Shown in pieces: positions 441 to 36,249 of a DNA stretch of 36,249 nucleotides. Each line of letters starts with the position of its first letter. Positions within the stretch are counted from its first letter, which is position 1. The DNA is from a virus (taxonomy: Duplodnaviria > Caudoviricetes), in the IMG/VR virus record IMGVR_UViG_3300037483_000722, positions 1 through 36,249 of that record; one strand, given 5' to 3'. The notes under the pieces are model-generated. The model made no database searches, was not told the DNA's origin, and worked only from the letters and a program-made list of their open reading frames with translations. The position numbers were made by a program, and so were the translations under genes.

Positions 441-1139
441 GTGTCTGCCGGACGCTGCGCGACCGTCCAGGCCGCCGTGCATAAGATTTTCCTGGACGAC
501 GTTGTACGTGGTCCAAAGGTCGGTGCCCTCATCTTCCACTCTGCGTACCATCAGCGCCTGTTCCGGGCTTATTGGCGGACGGCCATTGAACTTCACAGCC
601 AAAGCCTTCTCCGCAAATGCAAGCTGCTCGTGGAACGTCAGTTGTCGCTCCGTCATACGTTCGATCCGCTCAGAGATCATCGGCACCACGTCAATGACTT
701 TCTGAGTCGCTTCAGAAACTTGCTGGAGCAGCGTGGCATGGTTGTGGCGCAGGCGGATCTGTTCAAACATCGTGGCTGCCGTGATAAGACCGTTGGAGCA
801 GACCATCCGAAATAGCCCAGCCATCAACTGCCACGAAGAAGAGCCGTCGTGAGAGTTGACCAGCACGATCTCTGGGTGAATCGCGCCGGACTTGGTGATG
901 ATTGCCGGCAGGTCTGGATTGCCGAGGCGCACGAGGTGCTTGGCAAAAGCGCGATTGTTGGTGTTGCGCGAGCGCTTCTGAGAAGCTTGCACAGGATGCC
1001 AGTTCGCTTCGATCAGAGACAAGATGACATCTCCGGTCGAAACAAAGCTGTATCTGTCGGACAACTCCGACGCGGGTTGTTTTGCAAAAATCGATGGAGC
1101 GTGACTTGCCAGTTGCGAATGGGTAAGGATCGTTCTCAT
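351..1139 (-). CDS. DUF932/DUF945-family phage/plasmid protein, probably 3'-truncated
   Basis: Motifs SDRYSFVST, PEIVLVNSHDGSSSWQLMAGLFRMVCSNG and DLWTTYNVVQENLMHGG; RBS AAGGAG. Family-like sequence stops at about 440. Confidence 0.85.
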   Translation of the reverse strand: MRTILTHSQLASHAPSIFAKQPASELSDRYSFVSTGDVILSLIEANWHPVQASQKRSRNTNNRAFAKHLVRLGNPDLPAIITKSGAIHPEIVLVNSHDGSSSWQLMAGLFRMVCSNGLITAATMFEQIRLRHNHATLLQQVSEATQKVIDVVPMISERIERMTERQLTFHEQLAFAEKALAVKFNGRPPISPEQALMVRRVEDEGTDLWTTYNVVQENLMHGGLDGRAASGRHVPSLLVRRNRRMERLRRLTTTNGNAYCLN

Positions 1140-1180
1140 GGTTTTCTCCTTCTTTCTGAGTTGGTTGATCGTTAGAAGCT

Positions 1181-1221
1181 ATTGTCTTCCTTCCGGATCC
1201 GTAAAGCAACATAAAAATTCA
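1181..1221 (-). promoter_or_regulatory. sigma70-like promoter TTGCTT-N17-GACAAT with AT-rich upstream element
   Basis: -35 at 1204-1209 and -10 at 1181-1186. The 20 bp at 1202-1221 are identical to 2318-2337. Confidence 0.7.
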
Positions 1222-1234
1222 AAGAAGCGCATTT

Positions 1235-1450
1235 TTATTCTTGCCAGAACCGTTCTGGCTTGTAACGCTCCCACATTTCAAGTTTCAGCTGCCGCCACAA
1301 ACCGAGAACTGTGTGGCGTGTGACGTTCGGCCAATCTTTCGGGTCGTCCGAGCACGACCACAACATCTGGCGCACATCGGCAAACGTAAGACCTGTGCGG
1401 AATGCGCGATATGCGGCTAGCTCTTCGTCGCTCAATTTAACTCTCCTCAA
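1235..1450 (-). CDS. hypothetical phage protein
   Basis: 71 aa, 4-bp overlap with the upstream ORF, protein-like composition. Confidence 0.6.
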   Translation of the reverse strand: MRRVKLSDEELAAYRAFRTGLTFADVRQMLWSCSDDPKDWPNVTRHTVLGLWRQLKLEMWERYKPERFWQE

Positions 1451-1767
1451 CCCCGCAACAAGAAGTTGTGGTTTAACGACGGGTCGTAGATTCTACGGCA
1501 ATTATGACACAGCTTGCGCGGTGGTCGTACGCCAGCTTCGCGCTCGACATCGACCTCTTTTCCGCACCGGAGGCACTTCACTGTGGTTGTGATAACTATC
1601 ATCCTGCCGTCAATTTCATGTCGCCTCTCGACGCGATCTCTGTGTTCGTAGCGTTCTTTCGTCTTGCAGGGTGTGCAGATGCGGTCAACTCCAGCCCTTT
1701 TCTTCTGAACATACGCCTCACCCATCCTGCCGCAAACGCGGCAACCCAACAGCTTTCTTTTGCCCAT
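1447..1767 (-). CDS. zinc-finger protein (4 x CxxC)
   Basis: CRVC, CTPC, CLRC, CHNC; RBS AGGAG; tightly packed with its neighbours. Confidence 0.7.
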   Translation of the reverse strand: MGKRKLLGCRVCGRMGEAYVQKKRAGVDRICTPCKTKERYEHRDRVERRHEIDGRMIVITTTVKCLRCGKEVDVEREAGVRPPRKLCHNCRRIYDPSLNHNFLLRG

Positions 1768-1768
1768 C

Positions 1769-2260
1769 TCACACGCTCCTCTTGGTGATTTCTACGATCA
1801 GATAAACTTGCATCGCACGACCGACAGTCCAGTCATGATTCACGCCGTCGACGACCGCGAGGACGTGGTTCTTGGCGAAGAACAGGTACGACTTGCCATC
1901 TGCCCACACCTTGTTAAAGCGCTTCGGGTGATGGCTGGTGACATTTTTAAGGATCTGGTGCGACGGCGGGTACTGGCTGATGAATGTGCTTTTGATGCAA
2001 CCTTCTCCGTATCTGCTGAATTCTTTGCAATCAAATCCCAATGAGCGCACGGCGTGCAGCATGTCGTTTGTGCGCATCCCATCGCCGGACTTGCGTCCGT
2101 TTTGCGCACAAACTTCGCGAGCCGTCGCATAAGAGACGCCGCAAACGGTGGCTATTGCTTTTACGGAACAGTCGTTAGCTTCGCCGATGCGCCTGGCGTG
2201 CTCTTCCATGGCGTTGAATGTTGCGGAGACACGTTTGTCGGATGAGCAGATCTTTGCCAT
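1769..2260 (-). CDS. phage protein with papain/peptidase C39-like Cys-His-Asp pattern
   Basis: NDCSVKAIA...HVLAVVDG...HD. Start moved to ATG at 2260 behind RBS GAAGGAG and a promoter. Confidence 0.6.
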   Translation of the reverse strand: MAKICSSDKRVSATFNAMEEHARRIGEANDCSVKAIATVCGVSYATAREVCAQNGRKSGDGMRTNDMLHAVRSLGFDCKEFSRYGEGCIKSTFISQYPPSHQILKNVTSHHPKRFNKVWADGKSYLFFAKNHVLAVVDGVNHDWTVGRAMQVYLIVEITKRSV

Positions 2261-2296
2261 TTTAAGCTCCTTCAGTTCTGAGTTGGTCGTAGGGCC

Positions 2297-2337
2297 ATTA
2301 TCGCTCATCCAAATTCATAAAGCAACATAAAAATTCA
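2297..2337 (-). promoter_or_regulatory. sigma70-like promoter TTGCTT-N17-GATAAT
   Basis: -35 at 2320-2325 and -10 at 2297-2302; paralogous to the 1181-1221 promoter. Confidence 0.7.
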
Positions 2338-2370
2338 CTTGACTTGATTTTCATTTCGGGAATAATTCCC

Positions 2371-2399
2371 TTGCTTTATTTTGCGGGTCGAGGGAAGAT
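2371..2399 (+). promoter_or_regulatory. divergent promoter TTGCTT-N17-GAAGAT for the replication genes
   Basis: Same -35 and spacing as the other three TTGCTT promoters; preceded by the near-palindrome GGGAATAATTCCC (2358-2370). Confidence 0.5.
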
Positions 2400-2442
2400 A
2401 TCCTTCCAATCTCGGAAATCTCAACTCAGAAAGGACAGACAG

Positions 2443-3411
2443 ATGAATCTTGAGGCGAAAGAATTCCTCAGCGCGTTGTGCCCGACGCTGCCAGAGGACG
2501 AAAGGATGATTGTTTGCGCATTCAGCGGAGACCCGAATGTCGCTGAGAAGAACGCCTGGAAGCCGCGCCCTTGGCGGCCCGGAGACGATGTCAACTTGCC
2601 CTATTCTTGGAACGGTTACATCACCGTAAGCTCATTCAACATAGCCCAAGACAATACCTGGCGTAGGCGAGGTGCGTTGTATGCGGCTGGCCGTGCGCTG
2701 ATGGTGGATGATATCGGCACAAAGGTGGACGCGTCTGCCGTGAATGGTTTGCCGCCGAGTGCGGTCGTCGAAACGTCCCCTGGAAACTTTCAATACTGGT
2801 ATTTTTTGACAGAACCGGAACGTGATGCGCTGCGCTTTGACGGCGTAATCCGCGCATTCATCTCCGGTAAGCTGATGGGCGCTGATCCTGGAATGGCTGG
2901 CGTGACACGTGTCGGGCGCATCCCTGGATTCTCAAACAACAAGAAAAAGTACGACGGCTGGGTCGTCGCGACGCGTGAGTTGACAGACAGAACTTATTCC
3001 ATCGAAGAGCTGTTGGAGGCGTTCAAATTGCAAATTATGGGTCGCCAAGCGCCGTTGAAGAAATTGCCGACCGAAGAAGCGATTGAGCGCAATCGCAACT
3101 TTATGGAGATCTATAAGTTCTTGCGGCAACGGGCGATGCTGAAGCGTGAAGATCCGGACGCTGGCGGCTGGACAGAAATTGAATGTCCGTGGATCGACAG
3201 CCACACAGCGAAGGCAAATACCGGCGCGGCCATCTCTGAGCCAAGCGAAGAGAATTATTTTTACGGCGGATTTCGCTGTCATCACGGACATTGCGCTGAG
3301 CGCGGCTGGCAAGATCTCTGCGACTGGGTGAACGAGCTGGCTGCTGAAGAGCTTGACGCGGCGAATGTTGGAGAGGCTGAATTCGGAAATTCATTGAAAG
3401 GCGGGGAGTGA
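2443..3411 (+). CDS. RepB-type (RSF1010 RepB'-like, AEP superfamily) DNA primase with C-terminal Zn-binding domain
   Basis: ALMVDD, PPSAVVETSPGNFQYWYFL, RVGRIPGFSN; C-terminal CPW..H...FRCHHGHC. ATG at 2443 follows RBS AAAGGA. Confidence 0.85.
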   Translation: MNLEAKEFLSALCPTLPEDERMIVCAFSGDPNVAEKNAWKPRPWRPGDDVNLPYSWNGYITVSSFNIAQDNTWRRRGALYAAGRALMVDDIGTKVDASAVNGLPPSAVVETSPGNFQYWYFLTEPERDALRFDGVIRAFISGKLMGADPGMAGVTRVGRIPGFSNNKKKYDGWVVATRELTDRTYSIEELLEAFKLQIMGRQAPLKKLPTEEAIERNRNFMEIYKFLRQRAMLKREDPDAGGWTEIECPWIDSHTAKANTGAAISEPSEENYFYGGFRCHHGHCAERGWQDLCDWVNELAAEELDAANVGEAEFGNSLKGGE

Positions 3412-3412
3412 G

Positions 3413-4873
3413 ATGTCCACAATCGAAGAACGCACAGCACGTAGAGAGGCGGAACTGGCTGCTGCTCTGGAAGAGACGCGTCGGCAAGCGTACGTGGAGG
3501 ATTATGTGTGGGACAAGGCGCAATGCCGGTTCTGGGATCTGCGCGACGGAACCTTACACGAAGACAAGGCCGTCGATGCATCGATACCACTGGAGCGTTG
3601 GCGTGTGGTGGTTCAAGACGGCGACGAGGATGACGCCCCGGGAGAAGCGTCTGCGCGACGTGGACGGCCAAGGCGGCGACGTGAACAGCTCGTTCAACCA
3701 TCCAAGGACATCATGCGCATAGAGACCGACCAAACCGTGGAGGGGTCGACTTGGTGGCCTGGTCGGGAGCAGGTGATAAAGGATTGGTTCATCGACAGAG
3801 ATGGCTTTTACCCTTCCAAAGGGCGGCGCATCTACAATCAATATAAGCGTCCGCCGGAATTGAACGGTGATCCAGCGCTGGCTGGAGTTTGGCTCGATCA
3901 CGTCAAGCGCCTTTGGCCAGACAGGAAGGAGCACGAGTACTTTTTTGACTATTGCGCTCACATGGTTCAATTCCCGGAGGTGAAGTGCAACGCCGCGATC
4001 GTGTTGAGTGGGACGCAGGGCATCGGCAAGGATGCCGCGTTGTTGCCGGTGAAGGAGGCGGTCGGCTCCTGGAACACCAAAGGGATCGATCCGGACGAAC
4101 TGTTCAGCCAGTACAAGCCGTGGATCCAAACGCTAATGCTCGTGGTCGACGAAGTTCGACCGAGCAAAGATGAATTCCACGCATCCAGCATGTACAACAT
4201 TCTCAAGCCGATGATCGTCGCGCCGCCAAACACCCTCCCGCTCAACGACAAATACGCCAAGCTCAGATACATCATCAATGTGATGCGCGTGTTTATTACG
4301 ACCAACGACTGGATGGCGATGTACATCCCCGCTGAAGACCGGCGTATGTTCATCATGCACTCGACGCTGATACAGAATTGGCACATCGCTGAAGGAAAAC
4401 CGAATTATTTTATAGATCTGTTTGCGTGGTTCGCTTCCGGCGGCGACGGTCACGTGTCTGCTTGGCTGAAGCAGCGCGACCTCTCTGAATTCAATCCAAA
4501 GGCTCAGGTGGAGAAGACTGCTGGGTGGGAGGCGGTCGCAAATACATGGTCTGAGCCGGAGGATGCCGTGTCGCAAGCGCTGGACATCCTGGAACGTCCT
4601 CCGGTCGTGTTCGGATCTGAGATGGTCAGGATCCAGTTTGACGGAGCAGAAGATATCTTAGGGATGCTCAAATCGCCGCGTAAAATCGGCCACAGAATGC
4701 AACGAGCAGGGTACATAGCGGTGCAAAATCCTGGCGGCGGAAAATGGTCCTTTAAGGGCGAGGAAACGTCGATAACAGCCAAATTGGCGTTCGTTAAAAT
4801 GGACAGCGGCATCAACAAAAATGACATGGTTTCTGCCATAATTCAGCGCGGAGAATCGCTAGTAAAAAAATAA
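3413..4873 (+). CDS. primase-associated SF3-like helicase/NTPase (DUF5906-like)
   Basis: Walker A GTQGIGKD, Walker B LVVDE, motif C FITTN, and EDRR; adjacent to the primase. Confidence 0.85.
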   Translation: MSTIEERTARREAELAAALEETRRQAYVEDYVWDKAQCRFWDLRDGTLHEDKAVDASIPLERWRVVVQDGDEDDAPGEASARRGRPRRRREQLVQPSKDIMRIETDQTVEGSTWWPGREQVIKDWFIDRDGFYPSKGRRIYNQYKRPPELNGDPALAGVWLDHVKRLWPDRKEHEYFFDYCAHMVQFPEVKCNAAIVLSGTQGIGKDAALLPVKEAVGSWNTKGIDPDELFSQYKPWIQTLMLVVDEVRPSKDEFHASSMYNILKPMIVAPPNTLPLNDKYAKLRYIINVMRVFITTNDWMAMYIPAEDRRMFIMHSTLIQNWHIAEGKPNYFIDLFAWFASGGDGHVSAWLKQRDLSEFNPKAQVEKTAGWEAVANTWSEPEDAVSQALDILERPPVVFGSEMVRIQFDGAEDILGMLKSPRKIGHRMQRAGYIAVQNPGGGKWSFKGEETSITAKLAFVKMDSGINKNDMVSAIIQRGESLVKK

Positions 4874-29354: not shown

Positions 29355-29989
29355 TGGCATTCACCGGAATAAATTTCCCCGACAGAGACGCAGTAACCCG
29401 CATGGTTTCTAGGACTCTCTTGCAGTTCAGGGAGTCCCCCGTTTTCCTTGACGTGGTAGATGCATTTTCACTTGAGTTGCAGCGGCTCCTTGATATGCTG
29501 ACAGACGTGCAGAAAAAACGTACAGCATTTTCAGCAGGGACAGCACAGTTAGACGCGATCGGTCGGATTGTTGGTCAGCCGCGTGCGGTATCCGGATATT
29601 CTCCGCTCCCTTATTTTGCCCCGGACATACCCGAGGTGGGCGACCCGGATATAGGGCTTGTCTGGGTTGAGACAGCCCCTCTCTCCGAGGTGTTGGACGT
29701 GGACAACCCAACCCTGTTGTCTTTCATCGAGGCGCGAACGCAGTCGAATAAATCCATCGGGTCCGTGCCGGAAATTCAAGCAGCAGCAAAAACTGTTCTT
29801 GGCCTTGACATAAGTATCATCATCGTCAATTTGATGACAGTCAAGATTGTCGTCCCCGACACAACGACCGCCGCTCAAATATTGTTCTTGCAGACCTATT
29901 TTGATACCAAGACAGCTGACCGGGTGACTTTCCTGCCGTTGCCTGCCACTGTGAAAATATCGCGAATCGTCAAACTGTCGGATTTATAA
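29354..29989 (+). CDS. baseplate wedge protein (DUF2612-like)
   Basis: A.G.QLD.IGRIVG..R; follows the J-like gene. Confidence 0.8.
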   Translation: MAFTGINFPDRDAVTRMVSRTLLQFRESPVFLDVVDAFSLELQRLLDMLTDVQKKRTAFSAGTAQLDAIGRIVGQPRAVSGYSPLPYFAPDIPEVGDPDIGLVWVETAPLSEVLDVDNPTLLSFIEARTQSNKSIGSVPEIQAAAKTVLGLDISIIIVNLMTVKIVVPDTTTAAQILFLQTYFDTKTADRVTFLPLPATVKISRIVKLSDL

Positions 29990-30001
29990 CAGGAGGAAGT
30001 T

Positions 30002-30952
30002 ATGCCAACAAACAGAGCAGTAATCACCGGCGGCGAGTGGGCCATTGGCGCAGCAGACGCACCAGCAGAACCAATAGCCGGGGCAACATATCGGAATTCG
30101 GCATTAACAGAGGCGGCGATTCAATCCGCGTGGCCGTTCTCGGAGGTCGTTGGATCCGCGAAATTCAATGAGGTGATGGGCAGGGTTACGTCTCTGCTTG
30201 TCCTTCTGGAGTCGTGGGGCATTTTACCATATTCCGCGTTGACCGATTATGCAATCGGCGCGCGGGTTATGGGGTCTGACGGTATCATTTATGAGGCACT
30301 GGCCGCGAACGGCCCCGCAACGACCGTCGTTGACGCGGTAGGCAATCCAGCAACGTGGATCAAGTCGGGATATACAGAGGCAGAAATTCGGGCACTTTCC
30401 GCATCAACGACGCAGAAGGGCGTTGTTGAGCTCGCGACGGACGCGGAAGCCCAAACAGGGACAGACACTTCACGTGCTGTCACACCCGCTGCTCTTGCTT
30501 CTGTGACAGCGACAACCACCCGCAGGGGGCTGATTGAAATAGCTACTGACGCGGAGGCATTGGCCGGGTTGTCGGAAGTGCTGGCGGTTAACCCGAAACA
30601 ATTAGCGGTTGCTGTCGAAAGTTTGCAAAAAAACGAGGCGATAGTTAGCTTTGATTTAGACGGGGTGATAAATGCAGATGTTTTTAGTAATTGCTCCCTG
30701 TCTAATTTTGAGTTTAATCCTAACCCCGGGTATTATTATGCCGGAAGCTACACTAGAGTTGATATTACCGTCTCCGGGTTTGAGGATATAACGCTTGCGA
30801 ACACTGTTGTCATGGGGTCGTCTCCGCTTGGGGGTTTTAATTTTGAAGTGATCAACACAACGACGGTGCGCGCAGTATTTGGCACGCAGTCAAACAACGA
30901 AGATGGTGGTGTTAATTGCTTTGCTGTCCACATAATGCAGCAAGTGACATGA
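30002..30952 (+). CDS. tail fibre protein
   Basis: N-terminal baseplate-attachment region, two A(S/T)TT..G..ELATDAEA repeats, AT-richer variable C-terminus. Confidence 0.85.
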   Translation: MPTNRAVITGGEWAIGAADAPAEPIAGATYRNSALTEAAIQSAWPFSEVVGSAKFNEVMGRVTSLLVLLESWGILPYSALTDYAIGARVMGSDGIIYEALAANGPATTVVDAVGNPATWIKSGYTEAEIRALSASTTQKGVVELATDAEAQTGTDTSRAVTPAALASVTATTTRRGLIEIATDAEALAGLSEVLAVNPKQLAVAVESLQKNEAIVSFDLDGVINADVFSNCSLSNFEFNPNPGYYYAGSYTRVDITVSGFEDITLANTVVMGSSPLGGFNFEVINTTTVRAVFGTQSNNEDGGVNCFAVHIMQQVT

Positions 30953-31997: not shown

Positions 31998-32022
31998 CCC
32001 CGGCCCAAAGGCCGGGGTTTTT
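31998..32022 (+). terminator. intrinsic terminator ending the late operon
   Basis: CCCCGGCC-CAAA-GGCCGGGG-TTTTT. Confidence 0.85.
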
Positions 32023-32125
32023 GTCGTCACAGTCGTGATTCCGTCGGCTCTCAGGCCGCTTCCGAGTCTTGGCTCGGTGTCAAGTCGATCAATTTTACAC
32101 CCGCACCCCGTTGTACTTTTTTTGC

Positions 32126-32446
32126 TCATGGCATCCCCTTCTCAACTATTTTTCCGTTTTTATCTATACAAAAAAGCGTCGGCCCCTCAGCCATCACCAC
32201 CCAATTCCGCCCCAAGTCCATAGCTGCCATAAACCGCATTCGATCACGATCAAGGAATTCCGTCACAGCGTTTCGCTCCACGGCGTCAGCGATAATTCGC
32301 GGATTGTTCGTGATCACATCCCCAATTCTCGCGCCAACAATTTCCATCGCCGCGTTCATCCATCCGGCGCCACCGGGTATCGCTTTGTGATCACTCAAAA
32401 AACGCAGCATACAGCCCCGTATTCCTGACGATGTATAACACCACAA
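32126..32446 (-). CDS. hypothetical protein (start uncertain)
   Basis: ORF track; the C-terminal part looks protein-like. Confidence 0.4.
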   Translation of the reverse strand: MWCYTSSGIRGCMLRFLSDHKAIPGGAGWMNAAMEIVGARIGDVITNNPRIIADAVERNAVTEFLDRDRMRFMAAMDLGRNWVVMAEGPTLFCIDKNGKIVEKGMP

Positions 32447-32613
32447 TTAGCCATGCAGTCAGGAGAGCCAAACGCGCGCCAATCCGTCCCATCTGCATAG
32501 GGCGGATTGGCGAGGATATTCTTTCCCTCTTGGCTTAGGCCACAAGGGTTCGTATTTACAGTTCAAGCAATTTTTCATGTTATCTCCAATCTCCCAGCTG
32601 GTCTTCCATTAAG

Positions 32614-32808: not shown

Positions 32809-32824
32809 CCTTTGATAATTAATC

Positions 32825-32929
32825 GCCTAACCATAAAATAAACACGGACTGAACAACATCAGTGCTGCCCCGAATGGGGCGGTGGTTCGCCAGTGATCCG
32901 TCGCAGCCGGTTATTTCTAACCGTTCTAT
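32825..32929 (+). mobile_element. attC-like site 1 (105 bp)
   Basis: GCCTAAC CATAA AATAAACA CGGAC ... GGTTATT TCTAACC GTTCTAT. Confidence 0.65.
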
Positions 32930-33132
32930 TGCTTTTCGATCACATTGAATCCAGCCTGATCCAACAGATGGCACAGTATCAACCCAGCGTCTATGCTATC
33001 CCCTATTCCGTTACTCCCATTTTCCTGCAATGCATAAAAGACCTTCCCGAGTCTACTCGCCAAAACATTGTCCATCAGCGCCGTCAGCGGCTCTCCGTTC
33101 GAGTAAACCATTTTTCCATTGGTCATTCTCAT
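32926..33132 (-). CDS. cassette-like hypothetical protein
   Basis: RBS AAGGAG; the TAG stop lies inside the outer box of site 1. Confidence 0.65.
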   Translation of the reverse strand: MRMTNGKMVYSNGEPLTALMDNVLASRLGKVFYALQENGSNGIGDSIDAGLILCHLLDQAGFNVIEKQ

Positions 33133-33144
33133 ATCAATCTCCTT

Positions 33145-33189
33145 TGGTGCTGCTGCGGGCGCTATGCGCCGCCGAGCTTTTGGTTATGC
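33145..33189 (+). mobile_element. partial attC-like site (right half only)
   Basis: GCGCTATGCGCCGCCGAGCTTTTG-GTTATGC; no matching RYYYAAC box found. Confidence 0.45.
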
Positions 33190-33357
33190 CAACCCGTCAC
33201 ATGTGTATGAGTTGGGTATATTGTCACCCGGTTCGGTGTCACAGTCATCGTTGTACTCACCCCTTTTGGCCTTTGCGACGGCTTCCTTTTCGTCATCAGC
33301 GTCTACAGTCGCCCAACAAGTGGTGTACTGTTTCCAAGACACCCTGAATTTTGTCAT
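33184..33357 (-). CDS. cassette-like small acidic protein
   Basis: MTKFRVSW...VDADDEKEAVAKA. The ATG is inside the box of site 2 and the TAA is inside the box of the partial site. Confidence 0.7.
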   Translation of the reverse strand: MTKFRVSWKQYTTCWATVDADDEKEAVAKAKRGEYNDDCDTEPGDNIPNSYTCDGLA

Positions 33358-33411
33358 AACCAATCCTTTCAGCGGACTCGCTCCGCTCGCGGCTGAAGTC
33401 AACCGCTAGGA
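33354..33411 (+). mobile_element. attC-like site 2 (58 bp)
   Basis: TCATAAC CAATC CTTTCAGC GGACTCGCTCCGCTCGCG GCTGAAG TCAACC GCTAGGA: 7-5-8...7-6-7 spacing as in classic 59-base elements; GCT replaces GTT. Confidence 0.8.
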
Positions 33412-33605
33412 CTCGAAATGCTCCAGCACATCGAGAATTGATAAAAATGATCCGGGCCAATCTCGCCATCAACAGCAACCTCACACCTGGTATCGTCCTG
33501 CTCCTCTTTGGTCGTCCATCGCCACGGGTATGCCTTCCCAGCCCAAAAAGCAGCGGGGCCGTTTTCCATCACGAAATCCTTTTTGCATACGATGGGCTCA
33601 GTCAT
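33399..33605 (-). CDS. cassette-like hypothetical protein (possible 1-nt indel near 33443-33447)
   Basis: ATG inside the box of site 3; RBS GGAG within the site. Confidence 0.6.
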   Translation of the reverse strand: MTEPIVCKKDFVMENGPAAFWAGKAYPWRWTTKEEQDDTRCEVAVDGEIGPDHFYQFSMCWSISSPSG

Positions 33606-33704
33606 AACCAGTCGCTCCAGTCGGACTGAAATACATCAGTGCTTCCCGAGCAGGTCCGTGCTACTCGGTCATTTCGTCACAGCCGCTCACCCGTCACGTT
33701 ATGC
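33602..33704 (+). mobile_element. attC-like site 3 (103 bp)
   Basis: TCATAAC CAGTC GCTCCAGT CGGAC ... GCTCACC CGTCAC GTTATGC; shares GGACTGAA..ACATCAGTGCT with site 1. Confidence 0.7.
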
Positions 33705-33884
33705 CTTGCGGCGATGGATGCAACTCATCGCATAATTAGCTACTGCCCCCTGTACCGGGCAGTCTGTTTTATGACGCAGGCATCCGCAACACGCTTGAGG
33801 CAAATTAGGCATAACAAGTCGCTCAACGGCGGACTCGATACCGCTCATCACGCCCGTTCCGCTCTGCTCTTTTTCATCTCCCAT
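33699..33884 (-). CDS. cassette-like Cys-rich small protein starting within site 4
   Basis: The TAA stop is in the box of site 3; the N-terminal ESAVERLVM is translated attC-like sequence. Confidence 0.55.
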   Translation of the reverse strand: MGDEKEQSGTGVMSGIESAVERLVMPNLPQACCGCLRHKTDCPVQGAVANYAMSCIHRRKA

Positions 33885-33940
33885 CCTGTTTCCCTTTCTA
33901 TCCGCGAGCCTGTGAGCTAATCGTTAGCCAGCCGTTGGCG
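33809..33940 (+). mobile_element. attC-like site 4 (132 bp)
   Basis: GCATAAC AAGTC GCTCAACG GCGGAC ... CGTTAGC CAGCC GTTGGCG; the L boxes pair with one extra C, as in canonical attC. Confidence 0.75.
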
Positions 33941-33942
33941 AG

Positions 33943-34227
33943 CTACTTTCCCGGTCCGTAGAAATGCTCCTCAATTTTATTTGCCGTCACTGGGTCGAAT
34001 AGTTCGTCAGAAACAAAATAAACAGCCTCTTCGATTGCCTCCTTCATTCCGAGTTTACGGAATTCGTCAAGCTGAACCTCGCATCGGTCGTGATATTTTT
34101 GTTGCCACTGCTCAACCTCGGTTATCAACCATTCCAGCGTTTCTTGGTCATCGACACCCCAATGTCTAGTCGCTGCAAGACTCTCTGTATGTTTTGCTAG
34201 CATCCTTGCTTTTGCGAGCATTCCCAT
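33943..34227 (-). CDS. cassette-like hypothetical protein (longer starts inside site 5 possible)
   Basis: The stop lies next to the outer box of site 4; ATG at 34227 follows AAAGG. Confidence 0.65.
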   Translation of the reverse strand: MGMLAKARMLAKHTESLAATRHWGVDDQETLEWLITEVEQWQQKYHDRCEVQLDEFRKLGMKEAIEEAVYFVSDELFDPVTANKIEEHFYGPGK

Positions 34228-34247
34228 TTTTAAGCCTTTCGTTTTGT

Positions 34248-34380
34248 GGCTAACCAATCGCTGCTCGGCGGACTCGCTACTTGCCTCTTTGAGGGTTTTC
34301 ACCATGTCACCCTCGCCCTTACCTATCCACTCAGGTACTGCCATTTTCACCTCCGCAATCCGGTTATGATATCGTTGGCT
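34248..34380 (+). mobile_element. attC-like site 5 (133 bp, degenerate L boxes)
   Basis: GGCTAAC CAATC GCTGCTCG GCGGACTCGCT ... GGTTATG ATATC GTTGGCT. Confidence 0.65.
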
Positions 34381-35182: not shown

Positions 35183-36249
35183 TCAGGTCACACGGTTATC
35201 CTCCCAGAAATTAGCACATTTCAGGATGCGCCCCATCACATTCAGCTCTGCTATGCTCATCTTCGATTTAAATTTTCTGTGATAGTCGGTGAGCATCTTG
35301 AGCGGGTTCTCAACTGGGCATTCAATTTTGGACTGCTCTTTTGCATCTATGTATCCTTGTGACGTCCTGACGACAGCCGCGAAATTTTCTGGCACCAAAA
35401 TGAATTTTGTTTTCGGCAAAATCCTTTTCAATTGATCGATTTCAGCTTGACTGGAAACGGGAAGTGCGAGCGCTCCGTACGCCCGTTGGAAGTGCGCATA
35501 CGCCTCTTCTGCCAGCTCTGAGGATCCCCACACGTGATGCTGCGCGTAGTCTACGTCAGGCACACCATCTGACAGAAGTTTAATGAGGAGACCTCGGTTG
35601 GTTTTTGATAAAGACATCCACATACGACTAGTCAGCCATTGCAAATCAAAAGACCGCACCATCGATCGATCTCGATCCAGGTTTATTTCTGCCGGATCGA
35701 GGTTGTACCCATAATGGAGCGTGGAATCAGAAACGAATAACCCGCCAACAAATATTTTCCCTTTATGGCGCTGATCTGTCAAAATGAAGGATTTGCCAGT
35801 GACTTTGAGTTGCCGATAATTTTCCTGTAGGCAAAGTGTGTCACCAACAATATCTACCCAAACGCCATCCGAAATCCGGCTTATGACGAATGTCAGGGAG
35901 CAGTTGTCGTTGTGTTGCTTTACTACATCGATTGACAGCAGCTCACAGTCGTAAATTCTGCTTTTCTTAATTCGCGGCAACCACAACTCATGCAGCCCGT
36001 TCTTGATTGCGACAGCACATCCTTCCCGGAGAAGGGTCAGCAACGCCAGCTTGTAGCCTTCGCCGAACTGCCCGATTGCGCCGTCTCCAATCGATTTTGT
36101 GCCCTCCCCGAGAAGGAGCGTCTTTTTTTGAAGTGTCACACCACGCGAGCTTATAATTATGTCACCGTCGGCACGCTCAATAGAATAATCTCCGTGGTCA
36201 ATTGCATTCTGGAAGATTTCCCGCATCGCTTGCCGAATGCCCCACCCCT
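35183..36249 (-). CDS. GHKL (HATPase_c)-type ATP-binding protein, start outside the window
   Basis: WGIRQAMREIFQNAID, LLLGEGTK, IGQFGEGYKLA, L.RDR; the frame stays open to the window edge. Confidence 0.85.
   Translation of the reverse strand, partial: GWGIRQAMREIFQNAIDHGDYSIERADGDIIISSRGVTLQKKTLLLGEGTKSIGDGAIGQFGEGYKLALLTLLREGCAVAIKNGLHELWLPRIKKSRIYDCELLSIDVVKQHNDNCSLTFVISRISDGVWVDIVGDTLCLQENYRQLKVTGKSFILTDQRHKGKIFVGGLFVSDSTLHYGYNLDPAEINLDRDRSMVRSFDLQWLTSRMWMSLSKTNRGLLIKLLSDGVPDVDYAQHHVWGSSELAEEAYAHFQRAYGALALPVSSQAEIDQLKRILPKTKFILVPENFAAVVRTSQGYIDAKEQSKIECPVENPLKMLTDYHRKFKSKMSIAELNVMGRILKCANFWEDNRVT

Follow-up and report, generated by a model that had tools for sequence, protein, structure and literature searches.

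Genomic setting of the array

The DNA analysed here (the window) is a linear virus record taken whole, 36,249 bp in length and with an estimated completeness of 52%. A myovirus module running from the terminase to the tail fibre is encoded on the + strand (PHROGs), and the nearest named capsids share less than 30% identity with that of the record. From about position 32,400 onward the genes run on the - strand, with a flip in GC skew at that point. The early region of this myovirus holds a cluster of attC-type sites, E1 to E6, interspersed with small genes (Table 1), of which those labelled b to g all appear as gene calls in the protein collection that was searched.

A terminator-like hairpin (31998-32017) lies downstream of the lysis genes, and the roughly 450 bp without a clear gene beyond it (31998-32450), with short GATCAC-type repeats at the GC-skew flip, may serve as a control region or an origin. 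Upstream of the array, an ORF of at least 347 amino acids (phrog_6077; 35183-36249) runs off the end of the contig and had no relative in the viral-contig scan. A 43,039-bp contig represented in the protein collection, 6.8 kb longer than the record, encodes the same proteins. Promoter and terminator scans gave results near chance, an Rfam search returned no match and the array DNA had no match among 50,697 phage records.

Table 1. Sites and genes of the array, in order of position (aa, amino acids; bits and E values from the covariance model built here).
Feature	Positions	Strand	Remarks
Gene b, 61 aa	32614..32799	-	Start 25 nt left of E1; stop in GTTA box at 32613
E1, attC-type site	32825..32929	+	105 bp; 15.7 bits
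E1 boxes	R'' 32825-31, L'' 32837-44, L' 32909-15, R' 32923-29	+	6/6 L and 3/3 R pairs
Gene c, 68 aa	32926..33132	-	Stop within R' of E1
E2, broken short attC	33149..33189	+	L box, stem and R' kept; 5/6 L and 0/3 R pairs; no model match
Gene d, 57 aa	33184..33357	-	ATG within R'' of E3; stop within R' of E2; four equal-length homologues
E3, attC	33354..33411	+	58 bp; 32.8 bits, E 4.6e-6; 6/6 L pairs; R' GCT, not GTT
Gene e, 68 aa	33399..33605	-	ATG within R'' of E4; stop in spacer beside R' of E3
E4, attC-type site	33602..33704	+	103 bp; 17.9 bits; 4/6 L pairs (two mismatches)
Gene f, 61 aa	33699..33884	-	Start in loop of E5, through left arm of E5; stop in R' of E4
E5, attC-type site	33809..33929	+	121 bp; 23.6 bits, E 9e-4; 5/6 L pairs; R' 33923-29 GTTAGCC
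Gene g, 133 aa as called	33943..34344	-	Start in loop of E6, through left arm of E6
E6, broken site	34248..34380	+	Left arm intact; 2/6 L pairs; no model match
ORF h, 59 aa	34387..34566	-	Upstream neighbour; end 7 nt from E6; no exact called gene

Detection and anatomy of the sites

All six elements of the original prediction are present in the sequence, although its count of five complete and one half element has to be amended: four sites are complete or nearly so, and two (E2 and E6) are broken. The fifth element ends at 33929 instead of 33940, as placed by the model and by end complementarity, while the sixth (34248-34380), described as complete, has non-matching arms with 2/6 L pairs and gave no model match. 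The element taken for a half (33145-33189) is a short site at 33149-33189, with 5/6 L pairs and the stem preserved and only R'' missing. E3 ends in GCT, and the L pairs number 4/6 in E4 and 5/6 in E5. AAC and GTT cores are present in E1, E4, E5 and E6, and R'' and R' pair in four of the six sites; the GCT core of E3 pairs only via a G-T wobble. E4 and E1 have 26 nt in common at 88% identity. The right spacer of attC sites usually measures 5-6 nt; that of E1 has 7 nt, and the same spacer is found in a related site from another viral contig (L109).

A covariance model was built from 43 attC sites at 15 bacterial-type loci, picked by a box-pairing heuristic and given a hand-set structure; covariation in this alignment was set aside as evidence because the sites had been picked for pairing and it would be partly there by construction. 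Outside the training set, the model scored three sites of phage TJE1 at 38-42 bits and eight Vibrio sites at 23-31 bits. An unfiltered search of both strands of the 36 kb window returned five matches at E<=5, four of which are E1, E3, E4 and E5, all on the + strand and within 1.1 kb. In the covariance-model check suggested with the original prediction, four of the six elements thus match at E<0.1 with the model built here, and a score above 20 bits was reached by only two of the six. The left-arm motif TAAC-N13-15-GGAC occurs six times in the window against 1.69 +/- 1.32 times in shuffled sequences, a count of six being reached in 1/100 shuffles, and five of the six occurrences fall inside 1.45 kb. 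The strict box-pairing heuristic, run at two thresholds, missed all six sites, which is taken as a sign that they are damaged. Between the baseplate and fibre genes, a pair of AAC and GTT boxes 7 nt apart (29984-30005) encloses a stop and a start; its model score of 9.1 bits (E 3.7) is at chance level.

Extrahelical bases are located on the R'' arm, beside AAC on the + strand. Since the placement of these bases tells an attC site's top strand from its bottom strand (Nivina 2016, PMC5027507), the + strand is the attC top strand. In the bottom-strand folding check, unconstrained folds were weak (z -2.8 to +0.7) and the canonical hairpin was mostly not produced. Under crude constraints, the folding probabilities were 2.5e-4 for E1, 1e-7 for E3, 4e-3 for E4 and 2e-2 for E5, in comparison with 0.65-0.84 for two TJE1 sites; an intact-looking viral site was also low (1.7e-7), and a Vibrio site with a folding probability of ~1e-5 is reported to recombine with attCaadA7, at a lower rate (PMC5371416). 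The weak z-scores would be expected if the elements were chance palindromes or terminator-like hairpins among early genes. This explanation is refuted by the model matches and the motif excess, together with the near-identical copies in unrelated phages and the end complementarity described below.

Inverted polarity of the cassette genes

The main feature of the array, missed in the original prediction, is that its genes are antisense to the attC top strand. The longest ORF between neighbouring sites is antisense in all five cases in the window, whereas in the classical cassette the gene lies on the top strand with its attC after it, an arrangement seen in none of the five. The predicted occurrence of a single gene between successive sites holds, but genes f and g begin within a site and cross its left arm.

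The same orientation prevails in other viral arrays, selected by site pattern or capsid regardless of orientation, in which the longest ORF is antisense in 29/34 cases at eight loci and in 9/10 at two more, 38/44 altogether. In bacterial-type arrays it is forward in 42/52 cases (a figure that includes L043, a piece of Vibrio prophage, and a double count of one cassette) and in a further 9/9, or 51/61. The longest ORF is a rough proxy in these comparisons, with one of the two TJE1 cassettes miscalled, both being forward by annotation. Top-strand inversion was considered as the cause of the layout and rejected: it would flip gene and attC jointly, and here the sites are co-oriented and the genes flipped.

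Homologues of the cassette genes are few. Gene g matched only itself, gene d has four homologues and gene e one, all known as proteins without DNA context; genes c, d and e had no relative in the viral-contig scans, and the one locus returned by a metagenome scan with gene d was spurious. None of the cassette genes was found in another context by the homologue, viral-contig or metagenome searches. Three of the four proteins homologous to d, and likewise the one homologous to e, start with Met-Pro, the dipeptide that a perfectly complementary R'' would be predicted to encode.

Former circles and the place of crossover

Across 44 neighbour pairs at ten viral loci, R'' matches the preceding R' at 4.2/5 positions and its own R' at 2.25/5; perfect matches number 26 to the preceding R' against one to its own (within-locus permutation p=1e-4). 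In the window, the five pairs give 21/25 complementary positions with the preceding R' and 13/25 with the own R' (permutation p=0.035), and the ends of the E5-E6 and E4-E5 units are still perfectly complementary. In a classical cassette the start is complementary to the R'' of the same cassette, which is the case at 21/25 positions here, and from this we infer that the units are former circles. End complementarity alone is compatible with a crossover at either end; the crossover is placed at R' because copies of E1 share the whole of R'' but diverge after GTT, and because R'' is the arm that carries the extrahelical bases.

Gain or loss of ORFs and circular junctions had been anticipated for the array. 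Its own cassettes show neither in the contigs of four metagenome runs (from four separate studies, of which one may have yielded the record), in which no joints, circles or alternative order were listed, with the reservation that such contigs drop rare variants, so that rare excision would be hidden. In the sample of a second study (X2) the array has the same order as in the window. An E4-like site in two runs opens into a different sequence from the same ATG, and a gap across gene e in run X1 carries no information.

Relatives of the sites in phages and bacteria

A search of viral contigs with the E1/E4 pattern gave four matches, three of which are true copies of E1 (L107, L108 and L109; 87-90% identity). 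The fourth (L106) had no model match and was rejected as a chance match, as were the three matches of an earlier pattern scan. E1 and its three copies have identical R'' boxes followed, after GTT, by four different tails, with different genes on both sides. Change at the GTT box, anticipated in the original prediction, is thus seen as divergence directly after GTT in the copies of E1 in other phages and not in the cassettes of the window. Foreign contigs in the four metagenome runs match the E1 site only, with a summed depth of up to several thousand-fold; their loose ends fall at 32820-32827 and at 32925, directly beyond GTT, and several of those listed carry a reversed start codon and an anti-SD in the left flank. 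L107 (G140; 559-4049) has an array of nine attC-type sites; the phage record is 93% complete and lacks a tyrosine recombinase. All eight genes of this array are inverted and seven of its eight cassette ends are perfectly complementary.

E3 is identical at 50 of 53 nt to a site in the viral record G011, which has GTT. Among 401 bacterial genomes, partial E3-like matches were found in nine and a 27-nt match to E1 in one; no full-length match to the E1 family was found in the 401. E3-like sites also occur in forward bacterial arrays (9/9 cassettes forward). A host chromosomal integron could have been captured as one block, as published for prophages of Vibrio and Shewanella (Qi 2023, PMC9892861), and the E3-like sites in 9/401 genomes are compatible with such an event. 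Nevertheless, the bacterial arrays with E3-like sites are uniformly forward while the genes of the window are inverted and co-directional with the phage early operon, and full-length E1 sites number three in viral contigs and none in the 401 genomes, which makes capture as a block very improbable.

IntI was present in 45 of 121 genomes of the phylum to which a delta-proteobacterial genome with a similar site belongs, and in which E3-like sites were sought; the matches in this phylum are only a hint as to the host group.

Source of the recombinase

The absence of an integrase noted originally was confirmed across the whole record: the window (36 kb of a 52%-complete record) encodes neither IntI nor any other tyrosine recombinase, and no complete integron, with intI and attI or Pc beside the array, is in view. 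With at least two attC sites within a few kilobases and no intI nearby in the record, the description as a CALIN-like array in a phage is upheld.

Tyrosine recombinases were also absent from all five capsid relatives (72-76% identity). One of these, G001 (87% complete; 76% capsid identity), has nine model matches, mostly inverted, in two clusters (L034; 45959-47976 and 58168-59494); a complete relative, G003, has none, so that arrays appear to come and go within one phage group. The four other capsid relatives, one of them complete, gave no model match in the stretches searched, which cover the first 20 kb of G005 only in part. Among pattern-selected viral records, two of eight (G011 and G006) encode a tyrosine recombinase, as do none of four further records.

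The recombinase of G011 is an IntI (401 bits, family cut-off 265) encoded beside inverted cassettes. This viral contig (L072; 120-2865 and 6998-8520) carries a terminase and a Mor-like gene, and its intI directly follows the inverted cassettes; a 29-nt direct repeat, absent from the window, is found both upstream of intI and close to the E3-like site and is a possible attI or regulator site. As a gene for a XerD-like recombinase is found 260 bp from the E3-like site, the IntI of G011 is not proven to be the enzyme for this site.

Sites of this kind might be served by a phage recombinase other than IntI, for example of the Xer type, whose gene would lie in the part of the genome that the record lacks. 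The 52% completeness of the record leaves room for such a gene, and G011 has its XerD-like gene close to the E3-like site. Yet G001, with some nine inverted sites in an 87%-complete genome, G009 (100%) and G140 (93%) have no tyrosine recombinase at all, the non-IntI integrase of G006 is encoded about 12 kb from its array, and E3-like sites are present in forward bacterial arrays; a dedicated phage enzyme is accordingly an improbable explanation. The persistence of arrays without an enzyme of their own in the near-complete genomes of G009 and G140 favours supply in trans.

Decay of the array

Several features point to erosion of the array. The position of R'' in E2 is occupied by the reverse complement (anti-SD) of the ribosome-binding site of gene c, and E6 looks chimeric, its right arm resembling that of another site type. 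Compared with its homologue, gene e has a frameshift affecting the C-terminus; in the frame of the homologue, translation would end in R' of E3, and the change from GTT to GCT in E3 is stop-to-stop in that frame. The frameshift is not an assembly error, since the contig of the second study has no gap there. The core triplet matters as a microhomology (Nivina 2016, PMC5027507), so that E3 may be incompatible and not dead.

These observations raise the question of whether the array is a dead relic, with cassettes once inserted by IntI and now fixed as early genes, sites that serve only as start and stop signals, and exchange left to homologous recombination. The two broken sites, the GCT of E3, the frameshift in gene e, the anti-SD over R'' of E2 and the chimeric E6 all fit such a history, as do the lack of joints, the same order in two studies and the lack of model matches in four of five capsid relatives, one of which is complete. 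On the other hand, E1 retains every core pair and has counterparts of 87-90% identity in other phages, the perfectly complementary ends of E5-E6 and E4-E5 argue for recent insertion, and contigs conceal rare excision. A wholly inactive array is therefore unlikely, if clearly less so than the alternatives already discussed. The array is real, a partly decayed, mirror-image phage CALIN that is less intact than first reported, and as such a weaker test case than G011 or, in particular, G140, which is much better suited.

Proposed origin and working

The reading preferred here, to which a probability of about two-thirds is assigned, is that the window contains an integrase-less cluster of attC-type sites with antisense genes, assembled by IntI acting in trans with crossover between G and TT of the core, and now likely to be only partly mobile. 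The enzyme would be the IntI of the host, or of a co-infecting phage, recombining attC with attC; action of a host IntI on the array is plausible. A circular cassette with attC ahead of its gene would insert at this point of a resident attC during infection or lysogeny, the first entry possibly having taken place at a secondary site. With start signals in or beside its own attC and a stop at the crossover, such a cassette would be expressed, through early transcription of the phage, at any position it took up in an array of this type, and cassettes facing the early transcript would be the only ones expressed. What can still be excised in the window is probably limited to the block bounded by the sites in best condition (E1, E5 and perhaps E4).

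Two possible reasons for the inverted polarity may be put forward. In the first, the coding strand would be the folding strand and, if replication runs with transcription, also the lagging-strand template, an orientation of the folding strand that is reported to raise excision (PMC5371416). In the second, opposite polarity would keep cassettes of the host silent in the phage, and those of the phage silent in the host.

Comparison with known systems

The original prediction presented the array as an integron-type system working in a virus, and in this it was preceded by the phage CALINs of Qi 2023 (PMC9892861), who report 17 CALINs among 10,705 phage genomes and recombination by IntI1 of five of the six phage attC sites assayed, two of the three TJE1 sites scored here being among those assayed. 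As in the window, these consist of a cluster of attC sites with small genes between them and no intI. Because phage attC clusters are already known, the array alone is ordinary. The cassettes of TJE1 are forward, unlike those of the window, whose sites are also more damaged. In another CALIN phage of that study, MW202573 (L121; 2069-3738), five model matches lie on the - strand with genes annotated on the + strand, and the one weak match in P12002L is likewise opposite to the annotated genes. The accessible text of Qi 2023 makes no mention of inverted genes, and no description of the layout was found in the literature searched, a body that excludes most subscription journals; the mirror-image polarity is apparently undescribed, though MW202573 shows it.

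With classical integron arrays the window shares the R''-L''-L'-R' anatomy, the extrahelical bases on the R'' arm and complementary ends, in sites of 58-121 bp, and probably also the crossover between G and TT. It differs in having no intI, attI or Pc in view, in that attC precedes the gene and holds its start signals, and in that its genes would depend on phage transcription for their expression. Cassettes that recombination of the top strand has inverted (Nivina 2016, PMC5027507) resemble those of the window in that the gene faces against the array direction, but such inversion flips gene and attC together, whereas the sites of the window are co-oriented and each gene is flipped with respect to its own site. 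IntI also places cassettes in DNA without attI, by insertion at attG and in SALINs (bioRxiv 10.1101/2022.09.11.507474); this is a possible route for the seeding of a phage array, although the reported cases concern bacterial chromosomes and forward cassettes, unlike the window.

The consistency of the inversion (38/44 viral against 10/61 bacterial-type) is the point of interest to integron specialists, as it implies a separate phage cassette pool, a site-specific route to the mosaicism of phage accessory genes and a handle on the origin of cassettes, which is described as 'largely unknown' (Loot 2017, PMC5371416). A broader proposal, advanced tentatively and at somewhat less than even odds, is that phages maintain a mirror-image cassette pool of their own, in which attC families specific to phages (that of E1, for example) carry the start signals, and mobilize it with borrowed IntI. 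Were this the case, the two pools would share their chemistry but be kept apart by their opposite polarity: a cassette from the host, such as one of the anti-phage cassettes that are the subject of bioRxiv reports, would be silent in a phage array, a phage cassette would be silent at a host attI, and phages of this kind would count among the sources of new cassettes.
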